Shown: in pieces, positions 20,693-54,412 of the stretch | Numbering within the stretch: the first letter of the stretch is position 1 | How the letters are laid out: each line of letters starts with the position of its first letter | NCBI GenBank assembly: GCA_944363705.1 | Contig: CALVUY010000002.1 | Location: forward strand, 1-54,501 | Length of the DNA stretch: 54,501 nucleotides | Direction of reading: 5' to 3' | DNA from: an uncultured Bacilli bacterium | GTDB taxonomy: Bacteria; Bacillota_I; Bacilli_A; RF39; UBA660 | Translations under genes and position numbers: made by a program | The notes under the pieces: model-generated | What the model saw: the letters and a program-made list of their open reading frames with translations, nothing else | Database searches by the model: none | What the model was told of the DNA's origin: nothing

Positions 20693-21616
20693 CTATTTTA
20701 TTCTTTCTATTACTCTAAGCGTTGCAGAATGAGCTCTATTATTTAAAGCTAACTCTTCACTGCTTGCTTTTATTCCTTTTTTAGTAATTAGTTTAAAGTC
20801 TGGTAGTTTATCTATAGGTATATTAGGTAATCCTTTAGATAAAGGATCTATCTCACACATTTCATTAAACTTTTTCTTAACTATTTTATCTTCTAGAGAA
20901 TGAAATGTTATAATAGCAATTCTTCCATTAATATTTAACATAGATAAACTATCATCAAGAGATTTCTTTAAGACGTTTAACTCATCATTAACTTCTATTC
21001 TTAACGCTTGAAATATTTGTTTAGCAGGATGTTTCTTTATTCTTTCTTTATAAGGAACAGCACTTTTAATAATATCTACTAGTTCAAAAGTAGTTTCGAT
21101 TTTCTTAGTCTCTCTATACTTAACAATATTTCTAGCGATAGATCCCGAAAACTTACTTTCACCATAGTCTTTAAAGATTCTCTTTAACTCATCATAACTA
21201 TAAGTATTAACTATTAATTTAGCATTTAACTTATTATCTTTATCCATCCTCATATCAAGGGGAGCATCAAATCTATAAGAGAAGCCACGATAGTCTTCGT
21301 CTAGTTGAGGACTTGATACTCCAAGATCATAAAGGATAGCATCTACTTTTTCTATGCCTAGTTCTTTTAATTTATTTTTAGCATAGACAAAGTTAGAATC
21401 AATTATTTGGAAGTTATCACCAATAGTAGAAAGTTTATCTTTACTATAGGCAAGTGCTTCCTCGTCTTGGTCAAAGGCGAATAGATACCCATTTTTAATT
21501 CTTTTTAAAATTTGACTACTATGTCCTGCAAAGCCTAAAGTCATATCAACAGCGATACTGTTATCTTTTAGATTTAAGGATTCTATTGTTTCATTAAGTA
21601 ATACTGATTCATGCAT
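20693..21616 (-). CDS. rsmH: 16S rRNA (cytosine1402-N4)-methyltransferase
   Basis: HESVLLNE...DMTLGFAGHS...DLGVSSPQLD...GFSYRFDAPLDMRM motifs. Follows mraZ. Confidence 0.95.
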   Translation of the reverse strand: MHESVLLNETIESLNLKDNSIAVDMTLGFAGHSSQILKRIKNGYLFAFDQDEEALAYSKDKLSTIGDNFQIIDSNFVYAKNKLKELGIEKVDAILYDLGVSSPQLDEDYRGFSYRFDAPLDMRMDKDNKLNAKLIVNTYSYDELKRIFKDYGESKFSGSIARNIVKYRETKKIETTFELVDIIKSAVPYKERIKKHPAKQIFQALRIEVNDELNVLKKSLDDSLSMLNINGRIAIITFHSLEDKIVKKKFNEMCEIDPLSKGLPNIPIDKLPDFKLITKKGIKASSEELALNNRAHSATLRVIERIK

Positions 21617-22047
21617 TATATCTTCTCCTCAAATAAGTTTTCAGCAATATCGGACATTTCATCATTACAAGAACTCATAAACTCATTGAAGGCATCCTCA
21701 TCCCATATTTCTAATCTATCTCCCGTTCCTACAATTACACATTTTTTAGATAGATTAGCATAACTAACAAGGGGACTTGGAATATTAGCTCTTCCCTGTT
21801 TATCAAGTTCAATGGCAGTAGCACCAGACATAAAGAAGCGAGTGAAAGCTCTAGCATCTTTTTTAGTAAATGGTAAGCTTTCTAATTTTGCAACTATGTG
21901 ATTAAAAGTAGATTCTGAATAAACATAAATACAATGTTCTATACCACGTGTAATAACGAAGCTTGGGCCAAGTATTTCACGATATTTAGATGGTATAGCA
22001 ATTCTTCCTTTTTCATCAAGGTTATAATGAAATTCTCCCATGAACAT
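21616..22047 (-). CDS. mraZ: Transcriptional regulator MraZ
   Basis: MFMGEFHYNLDEKGRIAIPSKYR and a second DKQGRANIPSPL repeat. Start moved to the ATG at 22047, after GTGGGGGA. Confidence 0.93.
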   Translation of the reverse strand: MFMGEFHYNLDEKGRIAIPSKYREILGPSFVITRGIEHCIYVYSESTFNHIVAKLESLPFTKKDARAFTRFFMSGATAIELDKQGRANIPSPLVSYANLSKKCVIVGTGDRLEIWDEDAFNEFMSSCNDEMSDIAENLFEEKI

Positions 22048-22174
22048 ATTTATCCCCCACTTTTCACCACAATTCTCCACTGCTTAATTATATGTTACAC
22101 AAAAAGTTAGAAAATGTAAATAAAATAGAGAATATTTAATTAGACAAATAAATTACTTGACAAGAAAAATGTAA

Positions 22175-22295: not shown

Positions 22296-23420
22296 TCATC
22301 TTTCATAATCATAAATAATCACACCGGTATCATCTATACTAGGATCTAAAATATATTCTTTACCCCAACTTGATACTAAATACCTTCCATCATCTAAAAC
22401 ATCAACAATTGTCATAGCATGATCTCCAACATTATCATAAACTATATCATCTAGTTTTCCATTACCATCTAAATCTTCAGGAGAAAATAATGTAAAATAA
22501 TGAGCAGAAACAATAGCAAACTTCCCCTCTCTTAAAACTTCTTTAATATTTACTTTTTCTTTTTCTGTTTTATTTTCAATTATAGGCTGATTATCAGGAA
22601 TATTAATTCCAACTTCTTCTAGCTCTTTCTTTCTTTTTTTCCACTCCGCTGTACCTGGTTCTAAAATTACTTTTTTCGTTATAGTATTACTATTAACTGA
22701 CAACTGTATACCTTTTTCTGCAAGATATCCAGAAAGAACTCTACCAACATCAATAAGGCTCGTTCCACCCATACCAGTTCTAATAAAAATTTCATCATCC
22801 AAAGCTGCATCATTATCTCTTATTTTCATTTCCTCTTCTACATTACCATAAACTTCTTCAATAGTTTGAAATCCTTTTTCATTTTTGGCATAATACAAAA
22901 AGAAATCTAAAAACATATATTCATAGCGATACCCTAAATATGTTTCTCCACCAGGAGAATTCTGTTTATATGTTAACATAGAAAAACCAAATATTTCCTC
23001 AAATTTGCTCTCTCCATTAGGAATACTTTGAAAGTATTGAAATATTGTATTAATTGCAGCGACATAACCACAGCCAACAAAATTCATTCTATTAAATAAA
23101 AGTTCTAAATCTTCTTCTGTAGCATCTGGATAATATTTATTTACTATTTCCCATATATTTTCATCATTAAGATAGTTTTCTATATTTTGAACTAATGCTC
23201 CCTGATTACCACCAAAACTACTAGTACTATCATTTTCAGAATCAAATATACTACTGCATAAAGTTATTGTTTCTAAATCATTGTTACTATTATTATCACT
23301 ATTAAAAGTAACTTGTTGATCAGTAACATAATTAGTTATCTTACTTGTTGTAGTACTAGCTTTTTTTAATACATTATTAAAATTAATACTTGTTTTACTA
23401 ATATCTGACTTTATCTTCAT
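22296..23420 (-). CDS. Papain-fold (C39-like / transglutaminase-like) Cys-His-Asp protein, paralog A
   Basis: 374 aa with no signal peptide. Candidate catalytic blocks are NFVGCGYVAAINTI (Cys117), GDHAMTIVDV (His334) and YLVSSWGKEYILDPS (Asp359). The first 43 aa are identical to paralog B. Confidence 0.6.
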   Translation of the reverse strand: MKIKSDISKTSINFNNVLKKASTTTSKITNYVTDQQVTFNSDNNSNNDLETITLCSSIFDSENDSTSSFGGNQGALVQNIENYLNDENIWEIVNKYYPDATEEDLELLFNRMNFVGCGYVAAINTIFQYFQSIPNGESKFEEIFGFSMLTYKQNSPGGETYLGYRYEYMFLDFFLYYAKNEKGFQTIEEVYGNVEEEMKIRDNDAALDDEIFIRTGMGGTSLIDVGRVLSGYLAEKGIQLSVNSNTITKKVILEPGTAEWKKRKKELEEVGINIPDNQPIIENKTEKEKVNIKEVLREGKFAIVSAHYFTLFSPEDLDGNGKLDDIVYDNVGDHAMTIVDVLDDGRYLVSSWGKEYILDPSIDDTGVIIYDYER

Positions 23421-23431
23421 AATTACTTCTC

Positions 23432-23929
23432 CTATAATATCTTATAGCTTAACATTTTACATTCAATATTAAGTTTTTCTAATGTTTCTTTTTCTAATTT
23501 TTCTTTAATATTATTTATTCCTTCTCTTTGTTTTCTTATATTATTTATATATTCTTCCTTAATTTGCTTCTCTTTATTTTTTCCATAAATAAAAGCGAAT
23601 ACTAATGTACCATTTTTTATAATAGTTTCTGGGGTAGGCTCAAAATAGGTAATATTTTTTACCCCTTCTTTTGTAATTACCTTCTTTAATGTATTTTTAA
23701 TAAACTCTTCTGTCATTTCTTCATTTTCATTTAACTCATCTAAATATAAATTATTAAGACAATATATATATTTAGAAACTTTCATATAACCATACTTTTC
23801 AAAAGTAGTAGATGGTGTAAATGAACAATTACTCTCTTCTACTACATTATCTAAACTATCCAAATTAAGTTCACTTTTTAATAGTTCTATTAAACTATTT
23901 TTATACACTTCTTTATATTCTTCCTTCAT
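23432..23929 (-). CDS. Hypothetical 165-aa protein, copy 1 (cassette partner)
   Basis: Translation is identical to 25325-25822. No motif recognised. Acidic N-terminal half and a Lys/Glu-rich helical C-terminus. Confidence 0.6.
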   Translation of the reverse strand: MKEEYKEVYKNSLIELLKSELNLDSLDNVVEESNCSFTPSTTFEKYGYMKVSKYIYCLNNLYLDELNENEEMTEEFIKNTLKKVITKEGVKNITYFEPTPETIIKNGTLVFAFIYGKNKEKQIKEEYINNIRKQREGINNIKEKLEKETLEKLNIECKMLSYKIL

Positions 23930-23996
23930 TTATATCACCACCTTAAGTTTATCAAATATATAATTAAATAACAATATAAAAAGCATAAGTTTTCAC

Positions 23997-24046
23997 TTAC
24001 ACTTCTTGTATTACGGTTATAATCATAGGTTTTGTTTCCATAGTTT
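23997..24046 (-). pseudogene. Duplicated 3'-terminal fragment of rnj
   Basis: 50 bp identical to the last codons plus stop of RNase J at 25890-25939 (..TKPMIITVIQEV*). It was carried along by the tandem duplication. Confidence 0.8.
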
Positions 24047-24182
24047 AACCTTAAACACAACTTCTCTTCAAAAACATAAATATCATTAAGTTCACCATTA
24101 CCATCAAAACCTTTTGAATATTAATGTTCTGATTTCTGATATTAATTATTCATTTTTTCTTTCCTTAATTTTTTCAAACTTA

Positions 24183-25313
24183 TTAAAAATCATATAAATC
24201 AATACCAATAAGCTTATTTTTACTTGTATCTAAAGTATACAAATTACCCCAACTACTCACTACCAATTTATCACCCCAAACATCTACAACCCTCATAGCA
24301 TGAGGTCCTATATCTTCTTTAGGAATATCATTAGCAATTCCTCCAATAATGTTTAAAGGCTCCAAATCAAAATCTTTAGCACTTACTACTATATATTTTC
24401 CATCTTCAATTAAAGCTTTCATAACATCATTTGTTATATCTTCAACACCGAGTTCAATATTACCATTTTTCAAAACATTTACCATTGTTAAAGAATGATT
24501 ATTAATAAAAACATCATATGCTTTATCCCCTGGTTTTATCACAACTGGTGTAATTGTATCACCCGTTGTATGATTTCCATTATTAATAATATTTCCACCA
24601 GCAGCAGTTATACTAATACCATGTTCTGCCATATAATTAGAAAAAACATACAACCTATCACCAGGAGTAGTTCCACCCATACCAGTTCTATCAAAATTTT
24701 CATCATCCAAAGCTGCATCATTATCTCTTATTTTCATTTCCTCTTCTACATTACCATATACGTCCTCTATAGTTTTATATCTTAAAGCATCATGAGACCA
24801 ATATAGAAAAAAATCTAAAAATAATAAATCATAATTATAATTATTCTCTAAACCAAAGAGAGTATCTTTTTTTAATGGAAAACCAAATTTTTTCTCAAAT
24901 TCTTCTTCACCATTCTCTTTATTTGCATAGTAATTAACAATAATATTAACACAAGCAACATAGCCACATCCAATAAAACTCATTCTATTAAATAAAAGTT
25001 CTAAATCTTCTTCCGTAGCATCTGGATAGTATTTATAAACTATTTTCCAAACATCTGGGTTTAACAAATAATAATCAACATTATTTTTTAGATTACTTTG
25101 ATTGCCACCGTAATTTTCCGCGTTAAAAATATCCCTAATATCTATGCTATCTGATAATTCAATAGTCTCTACATTACTACTTTTATTATCACTATTAAAA
25201 GTAACTTGTTGATCAGTAACATAATTAGTTATCTTACTTGTTGTAGTACTAGCTTTTTTTAATACATTATTAAAATTAATACTTGTTTTACTAATATCTG
25301 ACTTTATCTTCAT
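24183..25313 (-). CDS. Papain-fold Cys-His-Asp protein, paralog B
   Basis: 376 aa with SFIGCGYVACVNII, GPHAMRVVDV and LVVSSWGNLYTLDTS. It is a mosaic of identical, similar and unrelated blocks relative to paralog A. Confidence 0.6.
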   Translation of the reverse strand: MKIKSDISKTSINFNNVLKKASTTTSKITNYVTDQQVTFNSDNKSSNVETIELSDSIDIRDIFNAENYGGNQSNLKNNVDYYLLNPDVWKIVYKYYPDATEEDLELLFNRMSFIGCGYVACVNIIVNYYANKENGEEEFEKKFGFPLKKDTLFGLENNYNYDLLFLDFFLYWSHDALRYKTIEDVYGNVEEEMKIRDNDAALDDENFDRTGMGGTTPGDRLYVFSNYMAEHGISITAAGGNIINNGNHTTGDTITPVVIKPGDKAYDVFINNHSLTMVNVLKNGNIELGVEDITNDVMKALIEDGKYIVVSAKDFDLEPLNIIGGIANDIPKEDIGPHAMRVVDVWGDKLVVSSWGNLYTLDTSKNKLIGIDLYDF

Positions 25314-25939
25314 AATTACTTCTCCTATAATATCTTATAGCTTAACATTTTACATTCAATATTAAGTTTTTCTAATGTTTCTTTTTCTAATTTTTCTTTA
25401 ATATTATTTATTCCTTCTCTTTGTTTTCTTATATTATTTATATATTCTTCCTTAATTTGCTTCTCTTTATTTTTTCCATAAATAAAAGCGAATACTAATG
25501 TACCATTTTTTATAATAGTTTCTGGGGTAGGCTCAAAATAGGTAATATTTTTTACCCCTTCTTTTGTAATTACCTTCTTTAATGTATTTTTAATAAACTC
25601 TTCTGTCATTTCTTCATTTTCATTTAACTCATCTAAATATAAATTATTAAGACAATATATATATTTAGAAACTTTCATATAACCATACTTTTCAAAAGTA
25701 GTAGATGGTGTAAATGAACAATTACTCTCTTCTACTACATTATCTAAACTATCCAAATTAAGTTCACTTTTTAATAGTTCTATTAAACTATTTTTATACA
25801 CTTCTTTATATTCTTCCTTCATTTATATCACCACCTTAAGTTTATCAAATATATAATTAAATAACAATATAAAAAGCATAAGTTTTCACTTACACTTCTT
25901 GTATTACGGTTATAATCATAGGTTTTGTTTCCATAGTTT
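25183..25939. repeat. Direct repeat copy 2 (about 757 bp)
   Basis: See 23290-24046. Confidence 0.85.
25325..25822 (-). CDS. Hypothetical 165-aa protein, copy 2
   Basis: Identical translation to copy 1. Confidence 0.6.
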   Translation of the reverse strand: MKEEYKEVYKNSLIELLKSELNLDSLDNVVEESNCSFTPSTTFEKYGYMKVSKYIYCLNNLYLDELNENEEMTEEFIKNTLKKVITKEGVKNITYFEPTPETIIKNGTLVFAFIYGKNKEKQIKEEYINNIRKQREGINNIKEKLEKETLEKLNIECKMLSYKIL

Positions 25940-27542
25940 TATAAAAGTATTTACCCAAAACATCTCTTACTTCTGTTTTAATAGTAGAATACTCTACTCT
26001 TCTAGAGTTTTCACTTATATTTTTCTCTATTATTTCTAAAGACATATTTTTAATTTCATCTACTAAATCTAAATTATCTTTAACATAGATAAAACCTCTT
26101 GTTAATACTTCTGGTCCTGCTAATATCTTTTTAGTTTCTCTATCTAAAGTACAACTAATAATAACAATACCATTTTCTCCTAACATCTCTCTATCTTTTA
26201 AAACTAAATCTCCAATATCACCATTACTTTTACCATCTATTAGAATTTCATCAACTGGTATATGTTCATTAGTAGGAACAAGATTACCTTTAATAAATAG
26301 AGTTACATCTCCATTTTGTTTTAAGATAATATTATCTTTAGGTATTCCTAAGTCTTCCGCAATCTCTGCATTAGCATATTGATTACGATATTCTCCTTTA
26401 ACAGGAAAATAATACTTAGGATTCATTATGTTTATTAATAAAGATAAATCTTCACGAGATGCATGATGTAACAAGTGTTTCTTACTAGATAAACTAATAG
26501 CATTAACACCAAGCATGGCAATATCATCCATAACAGTAGCAAGACGTTTTTCTATTCCTTCATACGCAGGTTCTGTTATAAAGATAGTATCATTAGTATT
26601 AAGTTTAATAAACTTATCATACCCTTTAATTATTCTTTCTAAGTTTGCAAAAGGTTTCTCTTTTTCATCTGATATTAATACTACAACATCTTTATCTTCT
26701 AAATTATTTAAATCTCCAATTACTCTTCTATCAATAGTTAAATAATTATTCTTTATGGCATAATTAATAGTATTTTGTAATGAATGACCCATAATAACAA
26801 TCTTTCTATGAGTCTTACTAACTTCATCAAATATCTCTTGTATTCTATAGAAATGTGCAGGAAAAACAGTTGCAATTATTCTTCCTTTGTTTCTTGCTAA
26901 TACATTTCTAATAAAGTCACTTACTCTATTATTTGGACTAGTATAGCCTTCTCTTTCAGCATACATAGATTCTGCTAAAAGACAAAGTACTCCTTGCTTA
27001 CCAACATAAGCAAGTTTACCTATATCTGTTTTATATAAACCTGTTTCAGTATGATCAAAAGTAAAGTCTCCTGTATAAACTATTGCCCCATCTTTAGTAT
27101 ATAAAACATAACATAAAGCATCAGGAATAGAATGAGTCATTGATATAGGAAAAATACTTTCTTTTCCAAGTTCTAATTTATGATGAGGTTTAACCTCTAT
27201 TAAATGACTTTTTTTAATCTCTTGTTCTGTTAAATCTTGTTTTAATATTTCAAGCGTTAGTTTCGCTCCATAAATATTAACTTCAGGAATCTGCTTTAAT
27301 ATATCAGGAACTGCTCCCATATTACCTTCATGACCGTGACTTAAAAAGATACCTTTTATTCTTTTTCTATTTTTTATTAAATAATCAAAGTTAGGAATAA
27401 TATAATCTATTCCTAGATTCTTTTCATTATCAAATTTACTTCCGGCATCAAACACATAGATGTTTTTATCTACTTCAACAACATACATATTCTTACCATT
27501 TTCGTTTAGTCCACCTAAACTAAATATTTTTATTTTACTCAT
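25890..27542 (-). CDS. rnj: RNase J-family ribonuclease with degenerate metallo-beta-lactamase motif
   Basis: MSKIKIFSLGGLNENGKNMYVVEV N-terminus, beta-CASP architecture and about 550 aa. Motif II reads HGHEGN instead of HxHxDH. Start moved to the ATG at 27542, after GGAGAA. Confidence 0.85.
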   Translation of the reverse strand: MSKIKIFSLGGLNENGKNMYVVEVDKNIYVFDAGSKFDNEKNLGIDYIIPNFDYLIKNRKRIKGIFLSHGHEGNMGAVPDILKQIPEVNIYGAKLTLEILKQDLTEQEIKKSHLIEVKPHHKLELGKESIFPISMTHSIPDALCYVLYTKDGAIVYTGDFTFDHTETGLYKTDIGKLAYVGKQGVLCLLAESMYAEREGYTSPNNRVSDFIRNVLARNKGRIIATVFPAHFYRIQEIFDEVSKTHRKIVIMGHSLQNTINYAIKNNYLTIDRRVIGDLNNLEDKDVVVLISDEKEKPFANLERIIKGYDKFIKLNTNDTIFITEPAYEGIEKRLATVMDDIAMLGVNAISLSSKKHLLHHASREDLSLLINIMNPKYYFPVKGEYRNQYANAEIAEDLGIPKDNIILKQNGDVTLFIKGNLVPTNEHIPVDEILIDGKSNGDIGDLVLKDREMLGENGIVIISCTLDRETKKILAGPEVLTRGFIYVKDNLDLVDEIKNMSLEIIEKNISENSRRVEYSTIKTEVRDVLGKYFYKTMETKPMIITVIQEV

Positions 27543-27599
27543 AAATTCTCCTTTCTTTTTATATAGAAACAAAACTTTACTAATTATACACTATTTTGA

Positions 27600-28070
27600 T
27601 TATATTTTCAAATTTAAATTTTTAATTAATATTTTATTAGCTTCAGTTATTTTTCTTTTAACTAACTTACTATTTTGATTATTTTCCATTAAATATTTAT
27701 CATGATAATTCTTAATTTTATAAAATCTATAATTAATAAGTAAAACTAAATAAATATCATAATTAATATAGAGATTTCTTATTATTAGAGCATTCGAATA
27801 ATTAAATCCTAAATTACTATAGTCTTTCTCTTCAAATCCTTGTTCAGTTGCTATGGCAATTCTTTCTAGAGCTTTAACAGCAATGTTATTACTATTTACT
27901 AAAACAGCTAATCGTTCTCTTATTTCAGGATCTTTTAATAATGATTGGTTTTCTAAGATATTCTCTAAGTTAAAATAAACAATATCTTCTCTTATCTCAG
28001 TTCCTTCCATTTCCAAGTTAAAAAGAGTATCTACTAAATTGTTATATATAGTTGTTTCTTTTACATTCAT
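27600..28070 (-). CDS. Hypothetical protein (156 aa)
   Basis: ORF located between rnc and rnj. No motif recognised. Confidence 0.5.
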   Translation of the reverse strand: MNVKETTIYNNLVDTLFNLEMEGTEIREDIVYFNLENILENQSLLKDPEIRERLAVLVNSNNIAVKALERIAIATEQGFEEKDYSNLGFNYSNALIIRNLYINYDIYLVLLINYRFYKIKNYHDKYLMENNQNSKLVKRKITEANKILIKNLNLKI

Positions 28071-29898: not shown

Positions 29899-30199
29899 TT
29901 TGTTTATGTTTATATACCTTTTCTAGAATATCTTTTTGATTAAAAAGAGTTAAATCATCTTCATCTCTACTAATATTTTTAGTAGCATAATCTACTATTC
30001 CTATACCAGGTATTTCATAATCAATATATATAACTTCATAACTAGAATCATCGCCTTTTAATTTAACAATATCTCCAACTTCTAATTTTTCTTCAAAAGA
30101 TGAATTTTTTTGTAAAGACTTAATATATTGCTCATTATTTTCAACTATATTACCATTTTTATCTTTAAATATTAAATCATCAAAACTAAAATTATCCAT
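29888..30199 (-). CDS. 103-aa acidic protein, candidate immunity protein for toxin 1
   Basis: The ATG at 30199 lies inside the last toxin codons (..AAT AAT GGA TAA), an 8-nt overlap, and GGAGG lies upstream. No known motif. Confidence 0.5.
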   Translation of the reverse strand: MDNFSFDDLIFKDKNGNIVENNEQYIKSLQKNSSFEEKLEVGDIVKLKGDDSSYEVIYIDYEIPGIGIVDYATKNISRDEDDLTLFNQKDILEKVYKHKQNAR

Positions 30200-33100
30200 T
30201 ATTACCTCCATTTTCTATAATATTTCTTATAATATTATAAACATTTCTCGTATTATATTTATTATAGAAGTTAATTAAATGATCAGAAATACCAAGTTTC
30301 TTTAATTCTACAATGTTATCTAATTGTTCTTTAGTATATTTCTGTTCAAGCATATTATCTTTTATTTCTTTATTTCCACGTATTTCTTGAATTTGATAAG
30401 ATGATTTGATTAATTCAGTAGCAAGTTCATTTCGTAAATATTTTTCATTCAAGTTACCTGGGAATCTAACTCTATCTAAGGCATCAGCATCTTTTAAAAT
30501 AGTAGCAATTCTATATACCTCGTTAGCATCATTATTACTAATATTATACTTACTAAATATTCTATTAATATCAGCATTAGTATCACCTGTTTCATGATAC
30601 TCTATAACCGCTGCTATTTTATTTAATTCTTCTTCACTATAATTATTCTCTAACTCTTTAAGAGCTTTAACAGCACTAAGTTCAGCATGATTAGTATCAG
30701 TTTGAAGATTCACTCTACCTGAGTCATGGAATTTAGCAGCTTCTATTAGTATATTCATTTGATCAATATTTAATCCTAGTTCTTCTCCCATATACATTGA
30801 ATAAAATAACACTCTTTCAACATGATCTATATTATGTTCAGGAATATTGATATCATAAAGATCATTACTTTTTAAATATCTAACTTCACTTTCAAATCTT
30901 CCTAATAACCCTTTTTCTTTAAACGTATTCATAATATCATAAAGATCTATTTGATTTTGTGCTAGAGGGCTAGACTTAGAAACAAAATTATTATAATAGC
31001 TTAGTGATTGATTTTTACTATTAATTTTATCTAAATTAAGACTTGATACAATAGACTCTTCCTGAGGAATTAATCTAGCTCTTATTTTTATTTGTCCAGT
31101 ATTTTGATCTATCTTAGGATAGGATATAATTTCAAATTCATTATTACGTCCTAATAATAATTCTTGTTGATTATAGTTTTTAATACCTGCAAACTTTTCT
31201 AAATAGGCTGCTTTAGTTCCTTTAGGAACTTCTATTTCTAAGGATATATGTCTTGTACTAGAAATTTTTTTAGGTATAAGCGAAGTACTCATAAAAGCTT
31301 GATCATTAAATTTTTGACCAATATTAAAAGTATTAATTCTATTACCATCTAAATATAAAGCATCTACACCACGGTATACTAAAATATCATCTTTTAAAGG
31401 TTCTGATTTTTCAATAATATTATCCATAGCTTGGACATATTCATCAACATTAGTATATTTAAATAGTTCGTTAAATTTACCAGTAAAATTTATAGATTTA
31501 GTTAGATATTCATTAATTGATGACTTCTTTTTACCATTAAAAAATCTACCTTTAAAATTAGTAATTGTATGTCTCAAATATGCTGTAACTGCTGGACCAG
31601 CTGCTAAAGTATATGTTTGAATCAAGTCTTTTTCAGTTTCAGTATAACTGTTTCCAATTTTATCAAGGATTTGTAACTTTTTATAAGTCTTTTTATCTTT
31701 TCTAGGTAAATATTTAAGATAATCTTTATAGTCAATATCTCTAATAGATTCATTGGACATTTTATCATATGCTTTTTTTACTTCTTGATTATTGGTAGTA
31801 TTTGCAATTATTTCTAATTGATTTAGAAGAAATTGATTAGCATCATTAAAATAATTGGCAATATCATATTTATCTTGAAAAACTTTAACAGAAGCATCAA
31901 TTGACTGTTCAATTGATGAAGTTAATTTAGCAGTTATACTACTACCATCATCAATATTAGTTAATTTCTCTGTTATCTCACTTCCTTCATCTATATCATG
32001 TAATTTTTCAGTTATTTCAACACCATCATTAGAACTATCCCTTATAGAATCAATACCAGCATTAGTTGCTTCTGCAACACTATTTACCACTTCATCGATA
32101 GTTTCTCTTGTATTAGTATTTCCTGAACTATTTATTTTATTAACATCACTAACTACACCATCTTTATCTACACTAAAGAAAGAATCAATATATTCAGGCT
32201 TAATACAATAAACGTTTTTTTCTTCATTAAAATAAACTAAATCTTCTATCTGTGATCCTTTAGGAATCTTTAAAAAAATCGCTCCATCTACAATATTACT
32301 TCCTTGAGATATTCCATTAGCATTTTTAACATCTCTAATTGCATCTATAATACTATCCATTCTAGTAATAGTTGCATCTATATTAATTTCATCAATACTT
32401 GTTGGAGCTCCTCCTCCACTAGCAGTATGGTTATTACAGTATAGACCTATTTCGCTTATAGATGCTATATCAGAACTTGGTATTGTTTTAATATAAACAT
32501 CATAATTAGGGTCTTCAAATAAATTACTAATATACTCTCCTGTTTCTTCACTTATAAATCCTTTATTATTAATATTTTCTATCATACTATCTAGTTGTTC
32601 TTTAGTGAAAAATCCTGATTCTAATCTACTTTTATAAAATCCTGTTATGTCATTTTCATTTAATTGATAGCCATGAATTTCATCAATTTCTCTTGATATT
32701 GGAACTTGTTCTTTTCCTACAGAAATTCCTTTAATTATTTTGGAAATAGCACTTATACCTGGTATATTTATTCCCTTTATTGATTTAGATACTTTATCTG
32801 CTACTCTATTATTTATATTTTCTTGAAGAATAGAAGTATTTATACTTGATATAGAATCAACTACATCATTTGTCGTTTCTATTACATCTTGATTTTCTGA
32901 TATATTAGTATCACTAATACTTTCAACATTACTTAATTTGTTAACAGTTAAAGAAGGTCCATTCATTGTTCCACTTATTATCATACCATAAATAGTACTT
33001 TTTAGAGCATCTAGATTCAATTGATCTCCATCCAATTGTTCTCCTAAAACTGTACCTCTTAAATAAGCATCTATATATTCTTGAGTACCTTCTTCTCCAC

Positions 33101-34694
33101 CTTCTTTTAATATTGATGTTGCTAATTCTTTAAATGATGTTACATTAACATCATTTAATCCTGGTATAGAACCAATCCATTTTTGCAATGTCGCTTCAGA
33201 AAGACCAGATAATGTTCCATAAAAAACAGCATCTCTTGTACTTACACCATTAACTAAAGCTTGATGATAACTATTTCCACCTGCTGATGTTCCCATTAAA
33301 AATGTACCTGCTGTTGGTGTTGTTAACATTCCTAAAGCCATACTCGGTAACATATTACCAACACTCATACTTATCTCATAATTATTATCTAGAAAGTTTG
33401 CAAAATCTTTATCATCACTTAATGCTTCTAATATATATAAACTCTCATATTCTTCAACACTATATACATCACTAGATTGATGCCATGCGGCAAGTCCTAA
33501 AAAGAAATTCTGGGCTCCATCCCCTATTCCTTTACCTGAAACTTTAAAATGATTCATTATATCCGTATAATCATAATTACCATTTTCATCTTTTTTTAGT
33601 CCTTCTAAAAACTTCTCCGCTTTCTTTTGTCCTGCTAATTGATTTATTTGATCTTCTATATCTTCAAGATATTTATTCGCTGAATCTATCCCTTCTTTTT
33701 CATATAAATAATTATATGTTTTTATTAAATCACTATCTTCATCTGCTACTGATATTAATGTCTTTAATAACCCTTCATTATCCATCGCTGTAGCCGTTGT
33801 ATCAGGATAATTTTCTTGTACCCACATACAAAATTCTAATGGGCTTATATTGTCTCCTGTCTTAGTACAATACTCACTATATGATACCTGAGTACCCATC
33901 TGCATTCGCATTTCATCTATTATGCTTTTATCTATTTGAAACTCATAATTAAAGTTTTGGTAATCTTCTTCTTTAACGAGAAACTCATATTTTGCCATCT
34001 TCTTTAATTGTTCTATTTTATATATAGATGTATTTAAAGTAGTTTGTTGGACCTCTAATTCTTCTATTCTTGCTAAATACTCATCATATGTAGAAAACTC
34101 TGTATTCTCGCTTATCGCTTTATCTAAATTTTCTTTTCTATATTCCTCAATAGATGCAAGTTTCTCTTTTACTTCATCATCTTTTTCTTTAAGCACTTCA
34201 AAAAGTTCAGCATAAGTCATACTAGTTACATCTGCTTGATTTAAGCCTAACTTTTCTAACTCTTCTTCTGGACAAGATATTTTATACCCTTCTATTAACT
34301 GATATATTTCACTAGTTATAGTATTCTCATAGTCTTTACACATATTTTCTATAACAGTTAGATTTGTTCCTGATTCTGCAAAGGCATCTTCTTTTAATAT
34401 TCCAAGTTCATTTTCTGTATCTTCTAACATAGTCTGATATAACTCTAATTCTTTTTCTAAACTAGCTTGATATGTCTTTAAATCTGTATTTTCTATATTA
34501 TAACCTTTATCTATATTAGTAAGATCTATTTGCGTATTAGATGTATTTGTTTGTTCTATCTTAGTTTCATTATTAATATTTCCTATATCTACATCTTCCA
34601 CAGGCTCACTACTACTTTTAGATAAGTTGCCATTTGTAATACTTTTTTTAAACTCAGATAATACATTAGGTATATCTATTTTTATCTTATCCAT
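30192..34694 (-). CDS. Giant polymorphic toxin 1: shared 857-aa N-terminal region + R-S-QxE ADP-ribosyltransferase domain + HD domain
   Basis: 1500 aa. ART motifs: YTLAAGPAVTAYLR, LVYRGV (Arg1108, codon 31371-31373), FMSTS (1136-1138) and NQQELLL (1176-1178). HD motifs: DHVERV, KFHDSGR, EYHETGD and KDADALDRVR (about 30462-30845). Confidence 0.8.
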   Translation of the reverse strand: MDKIKIDIPNVLSEFKKSITNGNLSKSSSEPVEDVDIGNINNETKIEQTNTSNTQIDLTNIDKGYNIENTDLKTYQASLEKELELYQTMLEDTENELGILKEDAFAESGTNLTVIENMCKDYENTITSEIYQLIEGYKISCPEEELEKLGLNQADVTSMTYAELFEVLKEKDDEVKEKLASIEEYRKENLDKAISENTEFSTYDEYLARIEELEVQQTTLNTSIYKIEQLKKMAKYEFLVKEEDYQNFNYEFQIDKSIIDEMRMQMGTQVSYSEYCTKTGDNISPLEFCMWVQENYPDTTATAMDNEGLLKTLISVADEDSDLIKTYNYLYEKEGIDSANKYLEDIEDQINQLAGQKKAEKFLEGLKKDENGNYDYTDIMNHFKVSGKGIGDGAQNFFLGLAAWHQSSDVYSVEEYESLYILEALSDDKDFANFLDNNYEISMSVGNMLPSMALGMLTTPTAGTFLMGTSAGGNSYHQALVNGVSTRDAVFYGTLSGLSEATLQKWIGSIPGLNDVNVTSFKELATSILKEGGEEGTQEYIDAYLRGTVLGEQLDGDQLNLDALKSTIYGMIISGTMNGPSLTVNKLSNVESISDTNISENQDVIETTNDVVDSISSINTSILQENINNRVADKVSKSIKGINIPGISAISKIIKGISVGKEQVPISREIDEIHGYQLNENDITGFYKSRLESGFFTKEQLDSMIENINNKGFISEETGEYISNLFEDPNYDVYIKTIPSSDIASISEIGLYCNNHTASGGGAPTSIDEINIDATITRMDSIIDAIRDVKNANGISQGSNIVDGAIFLKIPKGSQIEDLVYFNEEKNVYCIKPEYIDSFFSVDKDGVVSDVNKINSSGNTNTRETIDEVVNSVAEATNAGIDSIRDSSNDGVEITEKLHDIDEGSEITEKLTNIDDGSSITAKLTSSIEQSIDASVKVFQDKYDIANYFNDANQFLLNQLEIIANTTNNQEVKKAYDKMSNESIRDIDYKDYLKYLPRKDKKTYKKLQILDKIGNSYTETEKDLIQTYTLAAGPAVTAYLRHTITNFKGRFFNGKKKSSINEYLTKSINFTGKFNELFKYTNVDEYVQAMDNIIEKSEPLKDDILVYRGVDALYLDGNRINTFNIGQKFNDQAFMSTSLIPKKISSTRHISLEIEVPKGTKAAYLEKFAGIKNYNQQELLLGRNNEFEIISYPKIDQNTGQIKIRARLIPQEESIVSSLNLDKINSKNQSLSYYNNFVSKSSPLAQNQIDLYDIMNTFKEKGLLGRFESEVRYLKSNDLYDINIPEHNIDHVERVLFYSMYMGEELGLNIDQMNILIEAAKFHDSGRVNLQTDTNHAELSAVKALKELENNYSEEELNKIAAVIEYHETGDTNADINRIFSKYNISNNDANEVYRIATILKDADALDRVRFPGNLNEKYLRNELATELIKSSYQIQEIRGNKEIKDNMLEQKYTKEQLDNIVELKKLGISDHLINFYNKYNTRNVYNIIRNIIENGGNNG
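31914..32027 (-). repeat. Three tandem 36-nt (12-aa) repeats in the toxin 1 linker
   Basis: DGVEITEKLHDI / DEGSEITEKLTNI / DDGSSITAKLTSS. Confidence 0.7.
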
Positions 34695-36694: not shown

Positions 36695-38343
36695 GTAACT
36701 ATTCAGACTATGAAAAAAATAAAATGTAAAAAGTAGTGTCAACGATGCTGCTTTTTTCAATTATATATGAGAAAATAATAATAGTTAAGGATAGTGGTAT
36801 AAATGATGAAAGTTACAAATGATTTCTATAGGCAATTTGAAGAATTAAATAATAAGTTAGATTCATTATTAAAAGAAAATAAAGATTTAAAGAAAGAATT
36901 TAAACAAGAAAAAGAAGAATTAAAAACCACTATAACTAGTTTAGAAAAAAGCATAAAAGAAAAAGATGAACTTATAGAAAAATTATTAAATGAAATAGAT
37001 AGACTAAAAAATCAAATAAATAAAAATAGTAGTAATTCTAGTAAACCACCCTCAACAGATACAGGAAAGAAAGAAAAAAGTGGAGCCAATTTATATAATT
37101 CTAGAAAAAAGACAGACAAGAAAATAGGAGGACAAAAAGGTCATGAAGGACATAGTCTTACTAAAGATAAAGTTGAAAAGATGATAAAAGATAAACTTGT
37201 AGAAACTAGAACTATTTATCATGAGAGTAATAATAGGAATGGTAAAGATGTTACTAAGTATAGAATAGGCTTAGAAGTAAATGTTTATGTAGAAGAACAT
37301 ATCTTTAAACATAATCCAAATACAGAAGAAAAAATACCAAAAGAGTTTTATACAGATGTAACTTATGATAATAGTATAAAAGCTTTAACAATTGAACTTG
37401 GAACATACAATGTAGTGGCATTAGATAGATTAAGTGATTTATTTAATGTTCTTTCTAAAGGAGTAATAGATATATCTAATGGTACATTAGTTAACTTTCT
37501 AAAAGAGTTTAGTCTAAAGTCAAAACCAACTTTAGACAATCTAGAAAATGATTTATTAAATAAAGCTTTAATGCATACAGACGAAACAACTAACGATAAT
37601 AAATGGTATATAAGGAATTACAGTAATAGTGAAACAGTAGTTTATAAGCCTCATAAAAATAAAGGGCATAAACAAATAGAGGAGCATGATATTTTAACAA
37701 GATATACTGGGGGTATTATGCATGATCATGATACTGCAATGTATAAATATGGTTCTAATAACTATGAATGTAATGTTCATTTGGGAAGATATTTAGAAGA
37801 GATAATTCAAAATGTCTCCGAAGTTACTTGGCCGAAAGATTTAAAAGAATTAATATTTAAAGCATATCATGATAGAAAAGTTTTAATAAAAAAAGGTTGC
37901 AAATCATTTTCTAATATAAAAACTAATGAGATTAGTGCAAAATATGATGAGATTATATCATTAGCCAAGAAAGAAAGTAAAAATATTAAATCTACATATT
38001 ATAAAGAAAAAGCACTTAAACTTATTAGAAGATGTGAAAAATATAAAGATAATCATTTGGCTTTTATATATGATTTTAGTGTTCCTTTTGATAATAATCC
38101 AAGTGAAAGAGATTTAAGGATTATTAAAATTAAAACTAAAATATCTGGAGGATTTAAAAATATAAATAGTGCTGAAGCATATTGTAATGCAATTAGTATT
38201 ATAAAAACATCTCTTAAAAGAAAGATTAATCCTTTTGAATCTATTAAAGATATATTTAACAATAAAGTATTATTTGCAAACTAAAAAGAGCAATTTTTGT
38301 ATAATTACTCTTTACTTTTGCGTGTCATAGTCTGAATAGTTAC
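36695..38343 (+). mobile_element. IS66-family insertion sequence (single-ORF type), 1649 bp
   Basis: Perfect 19-bp terminal inverted repeats GTAACTATTCAGACTATGA (36695-36713 and 38325-38343), starting with GTAA as in IS66. 8-bp target-site duplication CAACTTAT (36687-36694 and 38344-38351). An uninterrupted copy of the target site is at 44303-44310. Confidence 0.9.
36803..38284 (+). CDS. IS66-family transposase
   Basis: 493 aa. N-terminal coiled coil, GGQKGHEGHSL block, CNVHLGRYLEE (C.aH.rR-like) and the C-terminal NNPSERDLRIIKIKTKISGGF block typical of IS66 TnpC. Confidence 0.85.
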   Translation: MMKVTNDFYRQFEELNNKLDSLLKENKDLKKEFKQEKEELKTTITSLEKSIKEKDELIEKLLNEIDRLKNQINKNSSNSSKPPSTDTGKKEKSGANLYNSRKKTDKKIGGQKGHEGHSLTKDKVEKMIKDKLVETRTIYHESNNRNGKDVTKYRIGLEVNVYVEEHIFKHNPNTEEKIPKEFYTDVTYDNSIKALTIELGTYNVVALDRLSDLFNVLSKGVIDISNGTLVNFLKEFSLKSKPTLDNLENDLLNKALMHTDETTNDNKWYIRNYSNSETVVYKPHKNKGHKQIEEHDILTRYTGGIMHDHDTAMYKYGSNNYECNVHLGRYLEEIIQNVSEVTWPKDLKELIFKAYHDRKVLIKKGCKSFSNIKTNEISAKYDEIISLAKKESKNIKSTYYKEKALKLIRRCEKYKDNHLAFIYDFSVPFDNNPSERDLRIIKIKTKISGGFKNINSAEAYCNAISIIKTSLKRKINPFESIKDIFNNKVLFAN

Positions 38344-38372: not shown

Positions 38373-41300
38373 CTAATTGTTATTTAAAATATTTGACTTA
38401 TCAATTTCTTCTAATGTTTTATTTAGATTATTTATATCTTTATTTAACCTTTCAATATTTTCTAATGTATTTTTTTCGTATTCAGTTATATCTTTTTGAT
38501 AGTAATAATCCATTACACTTGTACTATCTGGAACATAATCAAACTGTGTAATACTTTTAAATTCTGTTTCTATAGATTTAATCTTTGTAGTTAAGCTATC
38601 TATCTCAGCTGCAATATTTTGATTGTCTTTTTTTAATGACTCTACTTTATTTATAGATTCTTGTAAATCCTGCTTATACTGTTTTATTCTTTTCCTATAA
38701 ATAAGTCTTTTAATAAAATTACTAGAAGTTTCTTTAATTAACATATTCATAGTTTCTTGGTGATTTTTTTCACTAGTAATTTGACTGTTATTTTCTTCTA
38801 ACTTAAAAATATATTCATTTCTCATTTTGTATTTTTCTTTTCTATTATCAATTAATTCATTAAGATGATTTTTGGAAGCGATTATATTTTTAGCTAGCTT
38901 TATCTCTTCTAAAGAATTATTATATTTTTTTAGTTCATCTTGTTTTTCTAATAAGTCATTTCTAATTTCATTTTGAGAAAATTGTGTAATTACTTTAATA
39001 ATATCTTCATAGGAATGTGCACCTTCAAGTAATTTATTAAGAGTTTGACTATCTTTATCATCTATATTTTCACATAAGTTTAACAATAATTCAAAATTTG
39101 GTAGCTTCTCAATTAAGTTATTATTTTCATATAAATTAATAATATTTAACTGACTTATTAAATCAGAAAATGTTTTTACGTTTTTAAAACTGGATTTTAT
39201 AATATTATAAGTTTTTTCTTCAATATTTTCCAAAGTAACATTTTCTATTTTTTCATCTGGCACGTCTAATCTAATCAACAAATTATGCAAATATTCTATA
39301 TTTAAATAATTAGGAAACAATTCTAAAAAAACATTTTTATAATAACTATCATAATAATAATTAGAACAACACCTAAGTAAAGAAATAAAATCATAAACAC
39401 TATGAACATTATTAATATTTAAATTAGATAATATATTATTTTTTATTTCTTCATCAGGTAACGTATCACCTATAATTTTTTCTGTTTCACTACTTGGTGT
39501 TATATTATGAGTAACTTCAGACTTAATTTTATCTTTTAGCATTTTTATATCTTCTTTACTTGTTATATCATATTTGCTTTCTTTACCGAGCGAATCGTAT
39601 AAATCTATTTTAATTTTTCTAGTGTTTTCTTCATTGTCATTAAACTTTTCTACAATATTTAATTCATTTATTATAAATTCAGCTTGACTATAACTTAATT
39701 TTCCATCATCTGGCATATAGATAACTAATTCAACACCAGTTGAAGCCATCATAGCATTTCTCGGCCTTACATCAAAATATCTACTTTGATTATCATTATA
39801 TATTTCCGCTTCTATATTACCTGCTATTTCATTATGAGTAGCAAAGTCATTTCTAAGAACTTGACTATAAAATACAGACTGTCTATCGGTTATTACCCAT
39901 ACCCCTCTTATCCTTTTATTATTTTCATTACAATAATCAAAATAATCTTCAGCTTTTAGTTCTAAACTCTTTTCATTTATTTTTTTCAAATCACTAGATT
40001 TTCTTCTACCTACCAGTAATCTATCATAGTTTTTTTCTGATATATAACCTTTCATTAATAAATATCTCTTCATATCAGCAGTATTTAAACCATCAAATTT
40101 TTTAAATAATATAAAAGTAGACGTAGCTAATGCATTTTTATCTCCTGTCTTAATATAATCTTCTAAATATTTTATAGCGTTTTCTTTACCACATCTTTCA
40201 CTAATATCATTAAACAAATTATCTAAATTTCTATAAGTACGTGGATTCATTAATATAAAGCTACCACTTTCTTCATTCTCTTTATTGCTAGAAGCTTCTT
40301 TAATATTATTATCAATATTTTCATGTTGTTCATTAGAACTTGTATTATTAAAAATAGAATAGACTCTTTCTTTAATACCCATAGGATTTATTGCTTTCTC
40401 AAATTGACTGACTAGCCCACTTATTTTAGAATTTCCAAAAAAACGTCCTAACTCTTTAGATAATTCAGTATATGCACCATCATAAACGTACCTATCAAAA
40501 ATACTTCTTATAGTATCAGGGTCATTATTCAAATAACTATCTAATAAAATATCATTTTCACCATACAGTTCATAAAGTGCATTATCTATTCTCTCCCACA
40601 ATCTTATTCCTACATCATCATAATTATAATAATAAATTTTTTGATCATAATATTTTGATGCTAAATAATCAGTTAAACATTCATTTGAAAGGATATTATT
40701 AGTGCCATCTGAATAAAGTTCAATTATTCCTGAAGCCTGTATTTCTGTTCCTTTAGAAGTTTTAATTTTTTTATTTTTAACTTCTGAAAACTTATGAAAT
40801 AATTCATGTATAACATTATGCATACTTGAATTTGAAGGAAAATATACATTATGATTTTTATCTACAAAGCCAAGAACACTACTACTATGGCCCCTTTTTT
40901 TAACAAAACTTTCCCATTCATTAGCATCTATAATGTTAACGTCATCAACAATACTGTCAATATATGATTTTTTAAATTTTCCCTTTAAAGCTTTATAAAA
41001 AACATTCTTAACTTTTTTTGCATCCCATATATCAGCATCATCTGCTTCAGTAGCAGAAGCCATTAAAGCCCTTATATCAGATTCAAGTAATTCATCAGTA
41101 ATTGAAGTAGTACTTTGTGCAATACTTTTAGCTACATTATCAACATTTTCATTATAAGAACTATTTATTTTATTAACATCACTAACTACACCATCTTTAT
41201 CTACACTAAAGAAAGAATCAATATATTCAGGCTTAATACAATAAACGTTTTTTTCTTCATTAAAATAAACTAAATCTTCTATCTGTGATCCTTTAGGAAT

Positions 41301-44830: not shown

Positions 44831-45091
44831 CTATCTTGATATCAAAATGAGTTCACTACTATTTCTAATATCAGTTTCTAAAATTATTTCATTATTATTA
44901 TAAATTTTACTATTATCTTTATTTATTAATACACAGTCAAGATCATTAAAAGTATTAATATTATTAAGATCACTAACTGACTTCAAAATTAATTTTTTTA
45001 TTTTCCATACTAATTCATTGACTGGTATAAAAACATCAAAAGTAGAATCTAATTCTGGAACTATTAACTTAATTAAAACTTTATTTTTCAT
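44831..45091 (-). CDS. esaB: YukD/EsaB-like small ubiquitin-fold T7SS protein
   Basis: 86 aa counted from the ATG at 45091, which overlaps the essC stop by 11 nt. Size, position and beta-grasp-like pattern (KVLIKLIVPELDSTFDVFIP...ELILISR) fit YukD/EsaB. Confidence 0.6.
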   Translation of the reverse strand: MKNKVLIKLIVPELDSTFDVFIPVNELVWKIKKLILKSVSDLNNINTFNDLDCVLINKDNSKIYNNNEIILETDIRNSSELILISR

Positions 45092-53092: not shown

Positions 53093-54412
53093 ATGATGAT
53101 TGATTTTATAGAAGATTCAAGAAATGAATTTAAAGAAATATTAAATGACAAATTAGAAAAGGAAATAATTAGTTTTTTAAATGCCAATGGTGGTAATTTG
53201 TATATTGGTATATCCGATAATGGTAATGTAGTTGGTATAAATGAAAACATTGACGATATGCAATTACAAATAAAAGATAGAATAAAAAATAATATTTTAC
53301 CCGCTACAGTTGGATTATATGACATAGAAGTAAAAGAACATGACGATAAAAAATATTTACATATTATAATTGCCAGTGGTAATGAAAAACCATATTATGT
53401 AAGAAAAAAGGGAATGACACCTGAAGGATGCTTTATTAGAATTGGAAGTTCTTGCGAGCCTATGAGTCAAAAACAAATTGAAGAATTATTTTCTAAAAGG
53501 ACCAGAAATTCTCTTAAAAATATTGTATCCCCAACCCAAAATTTAACTTTTTCTCAATTAAAAATATATTATGAAGAAAAGAAATATAAGATAAATGATA
53601 ACTTTTTAAACCAATTAGGGCTTGTAATGGATGATGGTAAATATAATTATCTTGCATATCTTTTGGCTGATAATAATGATATCTCTATAAAAGTTGCAAC
53701 ATATTCCGGTAATGATGCCTATGATTTGATTGAAAATGAAGAATATGGTTATTGTTGCTTAATTAAAGCTGCTAAAAATGTCATTAATAAGTTTGAACAA
53801 GTTAATAAAACTTTCACTAAAATAACTAGTGAAGATAGGAAAGAGATTAAAATGTTTGATAACATTTCAGTCAAAGAAGCAATTACCAATGCTTTTGTTC
53901 ACACACTATGGGAAAGAGAATATCCACCCAAATTTGAAATATTTAATGACCATATTTCAATCTCATCAACAGGAGGATTACCCCTTCACGTATCAAAGAC
54001 TGATTTTTTAAAAGGGTTTTCTGCACCAACTCATCCAGAATTAATGAGAGTATTTAAAGATTTAGAATTAGTTGAACAATTAGGAACAGGTATTATTAGA
54101 ATTTTAAAATCATATAGCAAAGATGTTTATGAGTTTAGTGATAATTTTATCAGAGTTAATTTTAAATTTAGAACTTCTAAAACTCTAGTTAATATACCAA
54201 AATCAGTAGATAATAATATTTACTCATTATCTGAAACACAAGAAAATATTTTGAAGTTAATAAGAAAAAATAGTAGAATAACTCAAAAAGAAATAAGTGA
54301 TAAATTAGGAATAAACATCACTACTGTTGCTAGAAACTTAAAAGACTTAAAGAATAAAAATGTTATTAATAGAATTGGTTCAAACAAAAATGGTCAATGG
54401 GAATTGTTATAA
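53093..54412 (+). CDS. AlbA_2/Schlafen-like ATP-binding protein with C-terminal winged-helix domain
   Basis: N-terminus EDSRNEFKE...FLNANGGNLYIGISDNGNVVGI is typical of the divergent AAA (AlbA_2) domain. The C-terminus SETQENILKLIRKNSRITQKEISDKLGINITTVARNLKDLKNKNVI is an HTH. GGAGG RBS. Confidence 0.75.
   Translation: MMIDFIEDSRNEFKEILNDKLEKEIISFLNANGGNLYIGISDNGNVVGINENIDDMQLQIKDRIKNNILPATVGLYDIEVKEHDDKKYLHIIIASGNEKPYYVRKKGMTPEGCFIRIGSSCEPMSQKQIEELFSKRTRNSLKNIVSPTQNLTFSQLKIYYEEKKYKINDNFLNQLGLVMDDGKYNYLAYLLADNNDISIKVATYSGNDAYDLIENEEYGYCCLIKAAKNVINKFEQVNKTFTKITSEDRKEIKMFDNISVKEAITNAFVHTLWEREYPPKFEIFNDHISISSTGGLPLHVSKTDFLKGFSAPTHPELMRVFKDLELVEQLGTGIIRILKSYSKDVYEFSDNFIRVNFKFRTSKTLVNIPKSVDNNIYSLSETQENILKLIRKNSRITQKEISDKLGINITTVARNLKDLKNKNVINRIGSNKNGQWELL

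Follow-up and report, generated by a model that had tools for sequence, protein, structure and literature searches.

A stretch of 54,501 nucleotides from an uncultured Bacilli bacterium (contig CALVUY010000002.1, positions 1 to 54,501; hereafter the window) carries two tandem two-gene cassettes between rnj, the gene for RNase J, and mraZ. Each cassette encodes a small protein of 165 amino acids (aa) followed by a large protein of 374 aa (big1) or 376 aa (big2). We consider it fairly likely that the cassettes encode toxin-immunity pairs, of an unannotated family that is linked to type VII secretion (T7SS). According to this model, the large protein would be a Cys-His hydrolase toxin, and the 165-aa protein would bind and block its catalytic domain rather than its N-terminus. 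The small protein would be cytoplasmic and made first, shielding the producer until the toxin leaves. The window belongs to a metagenome-assembled genome (MAG) of 1.46 Mb with 26.6% GC, which is 90% complete.

Four minus-strand genes occupy the interval between rnj (25890-27572, minus strand; 96-99% identical to genes of loci L001 and L015 that carry RNase J Pfam domains) and mraZ (21616-22080, minus strand). Their order is small copy 1 (25325-25822), big2 (24183-25313), an identical 165-aa gene, small copy 2 (23432-23929), and big1 (22296-23420). This gene map agrees with an earlier sequence-only reading of the window, which had placed two cassettes at this site. The same reading had reported a perfect repeat of about 757 bp over the 165-aa gene and 43 codons of the large gene, and this is also what we find: a scan at an offset of 1893 shows that 23290-24046 and 25183-25939 match over 757 bp without a mismatch, as a direct repeat and the sole long run of identity. 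The earlier reading had overlooked that the repeat also takes in the last 50 nt of rnj. Each copy further contains a 67-nt intergenic leader with the Shine-Dalgarno (SD) site of the small gene (AAGGTGGTG) and the whole 165-aa gene, and ends 2 nt after codon 43 of the large gene. The copy adjoining rnj (25183-25939) thus runs from the end of rnj through small copy 1 to codons 1-43 of big2. The second copy (23290-24046) starts with a duplicated remnant of the rnj 3′ end (23997-24046, minus strand; reading ...METKPMIITVIQEV and then a stop), which is one edge of the duplicated segment, and runs through small copy 2 to codons 1-43 of big1.

The ATG of the large gene lies 11 nt past the small gene, and its AGGAG SD site overlaps the stop codon of the small gene. 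The SD sites and this spacing indicate that the small and large genes are translationally coupled. Since the immunity gene is first on the shared message, the immunity protein would be made before the toxin. A scan for promoters and terminators gave no more matches than the shuffled expectation. The tandem is unlikely to be an assembly artefact or a strain mix, because a unique 136-nt spacer after big2 (24047-24182, minus strand), similar to the 3′ flank of big1 over only about 30 nt, joins straight onto the copied 3′ end of rnj.

Neither large protein matches any entry of Pfam, NCBIfam, PADLOC or PHROGs, or any PDB sequence, and no profile search against PDB brought up a meaningful match (the one to 8g8i, a designed repeat protein, is spurious). 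Nonetheless both belong to a large family: an exhaustive phmmer search finds 429 representative clusters at 50% identity, and a word-indexed search finds 78 clusters at 90% identity. Both are short forms, and the hosts are uncultured low-GC gut Bacilli, deposited as 'Tenericutes' or 'Bacilli' MAGs and Candidatus Onthousia. In an alignment of 52 sequences, G70, Q73, G116, C117, H334, W352 and G353 are invariant and S350 nearly so; when long forms are added, G-C-x-Y, H and S-x-W-G are invariant in the domain-only alignment. The invariant Cys117 (codon 23070-23072 of big1, minus strand) is the predicted nucleophile and the first residue of a helix (117-132) in the AlphaFold 2 (AF2) model. The equally invariant His334 (22419-22421, minus strand), the predicted general base, is the first residue of a strand (334-341) and aligns to the catalytic His of Peptidase_C39_2. 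Ser350 (22371-22373, minus strand) lies in a V-S-[ST]-W-G motif 16 residues past His334, at the position of the third triad residue of Peptidase_C39_2, and may play a comparable role.

The sequence-only reading had proposed a Cys-His-Asp enzyme. The Cys and His stand, being invariant family-wide and accompanied by weak profile and fold hints to papain-like and C39-like enzymes, and the Asp has to be dropped: the Asp of the 'VDV' motif is not conserved and is Gly in most family members, and the position 16 residues past the His, which is Asp in Peptidase_C39_2 (H140, D156), is an invariant Ser. Papain has the same 16-residue spacing between His159 and Asn175, and its N-S-W-G resembles the V-S-S-W-G found here. 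We conclude that the large protein is probably a papain/C39-like thiol hydrolase with a Cys117-His334 pair. Before the His, residues D316-D325 of big1 (DLDGNGKLDD; 22446-22475, minus strand) form an EF-hand/DxDxDG-like stretch that looks like a Ca2+ loop and would be a candidate Ca2+ site. The motif DxDGNGKLDD is nearly invariant in the 52-sequence alignment, occurs in its strict form in 83 of 208 retrieved family members, and is absent from big2.

We compared the domain alignment with four papain-superfamily profiles built from genomes of the window's class. Peptidase_C39_2 gave an hhalign probability of 29% (E 5.8e-4), with its His aligned to H334, and the Cys region alone aligned Cys on Cys at E 0.07. 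Assignments to CHAP (1.4%, E 0.037), NlpC/P60 (0.04%, E 0.91) and Transglut_core (0.13%, E 0.46) were rejected. A Pfam scan of 107 family members found Peptidase_C39_2 in three (best E 5.7e-4, sub-threshold), LXG in four, three of them above the cut-off, and SLH, Choline_bind_1, Choline_bind_3 and Amidase_6 in one each. Foldseek was run on both proteins of the cassette; it returned no match at E < 0.01 for either, and for the large protein it gave weak papain-like hints. For the AF2 model of big1 (pLDDT 84, pTM 0.77, residues 1-50 disordered), the top non-significant PDB matches are 1y4h (staphopain-staphostatin, E 0.03), 9l5u (annotated as 'papain-like cysteine protease toxin/immunity pair', E 0.13-0.49) and the pseudomurein endoisopeptidase PeiR, and the highest Foldseek probability in BFVD goes to phage wall hydrolases, likewise not significant.

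The link to T7SS comes from the longer members of the family. About 60 of the 208 retrieved members are at least 450 aa long and carry the domain at their C-terminus. The N-terminal halves of P0196, P0222 and P0225 score above the Pfam LXG cut-off, and the operon of P0225 (locus L029) encodes a WXG100 protein, DUF5344, DUF3958, the LXG toxin and a 240-aa gene. Two further operons (L024 and L028) combine WXG100 genes and DUF4176 with a long toxin and a homologue of the small protein. Two to four WXG100 genes precede each of P0132 and P0224, and a DUF4176 gene is found before P0224 and after the small-protein homologue of P0132. P0132 shares its N-terminal 200 residues with proteins of 503-1126 aa, one of which lies in the same operon with a different tip. 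The domain is therefore the C-terminus of LXG, WXG-like and giant proteins, and it is a tip swapped among different N-termini, a pattern described for polymorphic toxins by Zhang et al. 2012 (PMC3482391). The T7SS effector link suggested by the sequence-only reading is thus strengthened by Pfam-confirmed LXG toxins and by toxins of WXG100/DUF4176 operons. One further member (P0110, 623 aa) has two tandem copies of the domain, the first apparently with 'PSCFITT' instead of 'GCGY', and this copy may be inactive.

The window itself contains a T7SSb island (29167-50945, minus strand) with EssC (45081-49640; FtsK_SpoIIIE, 6e-40) and giant toxins at 30192-34694 and 38373-43727. An island close to the cassettes had been noted before at a distance of 4 kb; it is indeed nearby, and starts about 3.2 kb away with a kinase gene at 29167. 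In a close relative (L011), the cassette lies directly after a T7SS toxin operon, in the order toxin, 107-aa gene, kinase, small, big and mraZ, and in L004 about 2 kb separate it from a T7SS island. A common export signature, MKIKSDI...NF in the large proteins versus MDKIKIDI...EF in the giant toxins, is unsupported by both a position-specific scoring matrix and a hidden Markov model (HMM). With the matrix built from 15 family N-termini, the giant toxins fell outside the top 40 of 10,751 candidate starts and EssC scored 5.9 by chance; the broader N-terminal HMM had no discriminating power.

We also examined co-occurrence with essC in 151 genomes spread evenly over the window's order, the window's own genome included. 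The domain is patchy, being found in 10 of the 151 genomes and in none of the three of the same genus. All 10 domain-bearing genomes have EssC, compared to 78 of 151 overall (hypergeometric p ~0.002 for the nine other genomes, with relatedness ignored and several matches weak or partial). The small protein is found in seven genomes, all of them among these 10.

The small protein forms a family of its own, with 29 clusters in a word-indexed companion search. Its AF2 model is an alpha/beta fold (pLDDT 92.5) for which Foldseek finds no neighbour in PDB. There is no Pfam family beyond noise at E up to 1, the Imm, SUKH and SuFu families included, and no DNA-binding domain detectable with Pfam. Of 17 short-form genes examined, 15 have the small gene directly before them. 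For long toxins, the arrangement is reversed: a homologue is the next gene downstream at L024, L026, L028, L029, L030, L033 and L034, with E-values of 2e-28 to 7e-5 for the small-family HMM and, for the L024 gene, an hhalign probability of 99.5% (E 2e-22). Downstream homologues were also found in G037, G066, G067, G084, G148 and three loci of G075 (contigs C1, C23 and C29), so that small-protein homologues adjoin the domain in about 15 long-form loci. The genes upstream of these long toxins are not homologues, nor is the gene that follows a nearby toxin whose tip is different, and only one long-toxin locus (L025) has a different downstream gene. The N-termini of the long toxins are unlike one another, ranging from LXG and WXG-like to giant proteins of 1371 to 6816 aa. 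Because the downstream homologues accompany at least four unrelated N-terminal architectures, the small protein tracks the catalytic domain.

All four LXG-linked homologues carry a lipobox (LLAGC, LTGC) or a signal/transmembrane segment, compared to none of 28 in the low-GC clade. Sec-exported lipoproteins or membrane-anchored proteins cannot serve T7SS as adaptors in the cytoplasm, whereas immunity proteins are typically of this kind. Accordingly, the sequence-only suggestion that the small protein is a chaperone or adaptor is not supported. Judged from homologues and gene order, the 165-aa protein is most likely an immunity protein that would inhibit the toxin, and not an adaptor of its N-terminus. 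For small copy 1, the prediction of a cytoplasmic inhibitor draws on the open reading frame, the alignment, the AF2 model and the homologues downstream of long toxins. Across 15 short-form loci, identity of the small protein correlates with that of the N-terminal 60 residues of the large protein (r 0.66) more than with that of the body (r 0.52), because neighbouring DNA is physically linked. These correlations show frequent recombination between the N-terminal region and the body.

Other arrangements of the same genes occur within the order. In G075, of the same family as the window, a one-strand array (L032, G075:C3:58000-72000) contains four long-form toxins of about 700 aa and three 217-aa small genes, each 10 nt before a toxin gene, like the coupling in the window. 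In L031 (G148:C32:49-20001), a giant frame of more than 6,600 aa contains the Cys-His domain four or five times, in compact copies that cover HMM positions 100-160 and 270-361 and lack the middle insert; a small-protein homologue follows it (G148:C32:21836-22366).

Beyond the repeat, the large genes are mosaics, as the sequence-only reading had described. The proteins are 50% identical overall, and nucleotide identity in a codon alignment of big1 and big2 varies from patch to patch. It is 100% over codons 1-43, about 50% over codons 46-85, 90-96% over codons 91-110, 100% over codons 190-212 (synonymous sites included), 30-50% over codons 236-330 and 65-70% over codons 336-372. The earlier reading had placed all putative catalytic motifs in near-identical blocks. 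In fact GCGY and RTGMGGT lie at the edges of near-identical patches, and HAM and VSSWG are no more than short family motifs in the 65-70% stretch. We take the identity of codons 190-212 to be a gene-conversion patch and not the product of purifying selection, because this region varies across the family and is missing from the compact LXG-linked versions.

Plain tandem duplication followed by divergence is ruled out: the repeat is 100% identical compared to about 50% for the bodies, and the 3′ flanks differ. Two scenarios fit. Either a second allele was integrated through homology of the shared 5′ module (Campbell-type), or the cassette was duplicated and one toxin body exchanged, with conversion patches added later. 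The tandem pair would thus have been born by recombination, with the 5′ module (the rnj end, the immunity gene and the first 43 codons) as a homology arm and extra gene-conversion patches inside the toxin gene, in an order of events that may have been either of these. As a result, two toxin bodies of 50% identity would share a single immunity sequence. Elsewhere, the window's genome (G000, contig C82:4504-5568; L009:1504-2568) encodes the large protein a third time, as a further paralogue. This protein of 354 aa is 41% identical to big1 and has the Cys, the His and SSWG intact, and two transposase genes directly adjoin its gene. No small-protein gene was found on the whole 5.6-kb contig.

Several observations weigh against a secreted toxin with its immunity protein. 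First, Pfam finds no LXG or WXG domain in big1 or big2, only a disordered stretch of about 50-60 aa, and there are no WXG100 or Lap-like partner genes between rnj and mraZ; export of the short form is therefore putative. As the sequence-only reading had claimed, there is no signal peptide either, neither large protein having a hydrophobic N-terminal segment. Second, the window's immunity protein also lacks a signal peptide while the LXG-linked ones are exported, and a single mode of action fits both poorly. Third, specific immunity would not usually pair one identical protein with two toxins that share only 50% identity. A single sequence could act on both toxins, and perhaps on the third paralogue, only as an inhibitor that recognises the conserved active site. 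Fourth, two short-form genes, L019 and the C82 paralogue, have no small gene nearby. Finally, the Foldseek searches of PDB and BFVD gave nothing at E < 0.01, so that a papain-like (C39-like) fold is plausible with weak hints behind it.

The immunity protein is of the cytoplasmic type in the low-GC clade even for the long toxins of WXG100 operons (L024 and L028). A broader reading would be that one toxin-immunity family acts on both sides of the membrane, with lipoprotein immunity in classical Firmicutes and cytoplasmic immunity in the low-GC gut clade; we hold this to be improbable. If it is true, one possibility is a target that is reachable from both faces of the membrane, such as a membrane lipid or a wall precursor linked to a lipid. 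By analogy with its LXG-fused relatives, the large protein is probably aimed at the cell envelope of competitors. An envelope target, either a peptidoglycan peptide or a precursor, is favoured because the immunity proteins of the LXG relatives are exported, single members carry wall-binding repeats, and there are weak wall-hydrolase hints. We put the chances of such a target at about even.

Among other explanations, the one that survives best is that the short form is an intracellular toxin-antitoxin (TA) or abortive-infection-type module, derived from a secreted family, no longer exported, whose toxin would be freed on stress or phage attack. We regard this as unlikely but far from negligible. 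The immunity gene is first and tightly coupled (11 nt, with the SD site overlapping the stop codon), neither protein has an export signal or trafficking domain, and polymorphic toxins and TA systems are known to share toxin domains (PMC3482391). The cassette is also found at differing housekeeping junctions, rnj-mraZ and HAD-rpsJ (L004), and one copy lies beside transposases. However, neither PADLOC nor PHROGs recognises the proteins and the small protein shows no DNA-binding domain in Pfam, EssC is present in all sampled domain-bearing genomes, and T7SS islands are found within 0-3 kb of three short-form loci. Furthermore, an N-terminal extension of about 60 aa, needless for a pure TA toxin, is kept in more than 100 short-form clusters.

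Much less probable is a self-directed enzyme that would remodel the wall and open it for T7SS, with the small protein as a staphostatin-like cytoplasmic safety inhibitor. There is a precedent for wall opening, since EssH opens the wall for T7SS in S. aureus (PMC13059805). The best Foldseek match is to staphopain-staphostatin, weaker ones are to phage wall hydrolases and PeiR/PeiW, SLH or choline-binding repeats are found on single family members, and the cassette adjoins the dcw cluster. Yet none of the structural matches is significant, and the domain is far patchier than EssC (10 versus 78 of 151 genomes, and absent from the three same-genus genomes). Multi-copy arrays, mosaic diversification and LXG fusion are marks of polymorphic toxins.

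A role of the 165-aa protein as chaperone or adaptor for export, recognising the N-terminal 43 residues and delivering the large protein to T7SS, is scarcely credible: the repeat boundary ties the small gene to codons 1-43 and identity of the small protein follows the N-terminal region better, but linkage of neighbouring DNA predicts that difference, homologues accompany toxins with unrelated N-termini, the LXG-linked ones are exported or membrane-anchored, and no N-terminal motif is detectably common to the giant toxins of the island.

Returning to the reading as a T7SS-linked toxin-immunity pair, the closest comparison is with LXG toxins of T7SSb such as TelC-TipC of Streptococcus intermedius (PMC6193138). 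The family's catalytic domain is also fused to Pfam LXG, an outward-facing, membrane-anchored immunity gene product is encoded directly after the LXG-fused relatives, as TipC after TelC, and EssC and further T7SS toxins are encoded in the window's genome. In contrast to these systems, the window's large proteins have no LXG domain and the locus has no Lap-type partners, the immunity gene is upstream and its product cytoplasmic, and neither the toxin domain nor the immunity fold is annotated or related to TelC and TipC.

In terms of catalysis, Tox-PL-C39, Tox-PL1 with Imm35 (PMC3482391) and Peptidase_C39_2 likewise have a Cys at a helix start, a His on a strand and a conserved residue 16 positions past the His. 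The window's family differs in that neither profiles nor structures match significantly, Ser takes the place of Asp as third residue, and an insert of about 110 residues separates the part with the Cys from that with the His. The systems given for Tox-PLC39 are T2SS, T6SS and PVC, and T7SS is not among them (PMC3482391). Cpe1-Cpi1 resembles the cassette as an interbacterial thiol-protease toxin with a dedicated small immunity protein; it is described as a papain-like cysteine-protease toxin of Gram-negative bacteria with a cytoplasmic target, GyrB/ParE (PMC12136450). In contrast, the exported immunity of the family's LXG relatives points outside the membrane.

Staphopain-staphostatin (1y4h) offers another parallel: a secreted papain-type protease is encoded together with a cytoplasmic inhibitor that guards the producer. 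Staphostatin genes are downstream, and staphopains have Sec signals and propeptides. Here the match is non-significant (E 0.03, TM-score 0.14-0.27), and the window's small protein has another alpha/beta fold with no PDB neighbour. Type II TA systems share with the cassette a coupled gene in the antitoxin position that comes first and two products without signal sequences, and they differ in that the cassette matches none of the families in Pfam, NCBIfam, PADLOC or PHROGs.

The surroundings of the cassettes vary between relatives. In L001 and L015, about 0.1-0.4 kb separate a DnaJ gene from the block of the ArsC-like gene and rnc-rnj, and therefore the whole 20-kb T7SS island (29167-49640 of the window) is either an insertion in the window or a deletion in the relatives. 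In L011, no rnc-rnj block separates the kinase gene from the cassette. Within the island, an IS66-family transposase gene (DDE_Tnp_IS66, DUF6444; 36803-38284, plus strand) lies between the giant toxin genes. Between rnc and rnj, an open reading frame of 156 aa (27600-28070, minus strand) has no match in a Pfam search and has counterparts of about 52% identity at the same site in L001 and L015. A relative with 67% identity encodes, between the large gene and mraZ (L001:9181-9480), a 99-aa protein with one N-terminal hydrophobic segment, which the window lacks. At the window's edge (53093-54412, plus strand), a 439-aa protein combines Schlafen/AlbA_2, HATPase_c_4 and winged-helix domains.

Neither Pfam nor NCBIfam annotates a comparable T7SS toxin family of the protease or thiol-hydrolase type, and none was found in the literature searched. 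The family described here is large, with its 429 clusters, common in uncultured gut Bacilli and accompanied by a new immunity fold of its own. The layout in the window is unusual: the immunity gene comes first, the trafficking domain is absent, and one immunity sequence is common to two diverged toxins. Were the improbable reading of action on both sides of the membrane true, the alternative to a target reachable from both faces would be that this leaderless, immunity-first short form represents a new class of T7SS substrate or a domesticated intracellular module. Its single broad-range inhibitor would then let toxin bodies swap freely behind a constant 5′ module. If confirmed, the family would extend the T7SS arsenal with a new enzymatic activity, and the tandem would provide a natural test case for broad versus specific immunity and for the exchange of toxin bodies by recombination.

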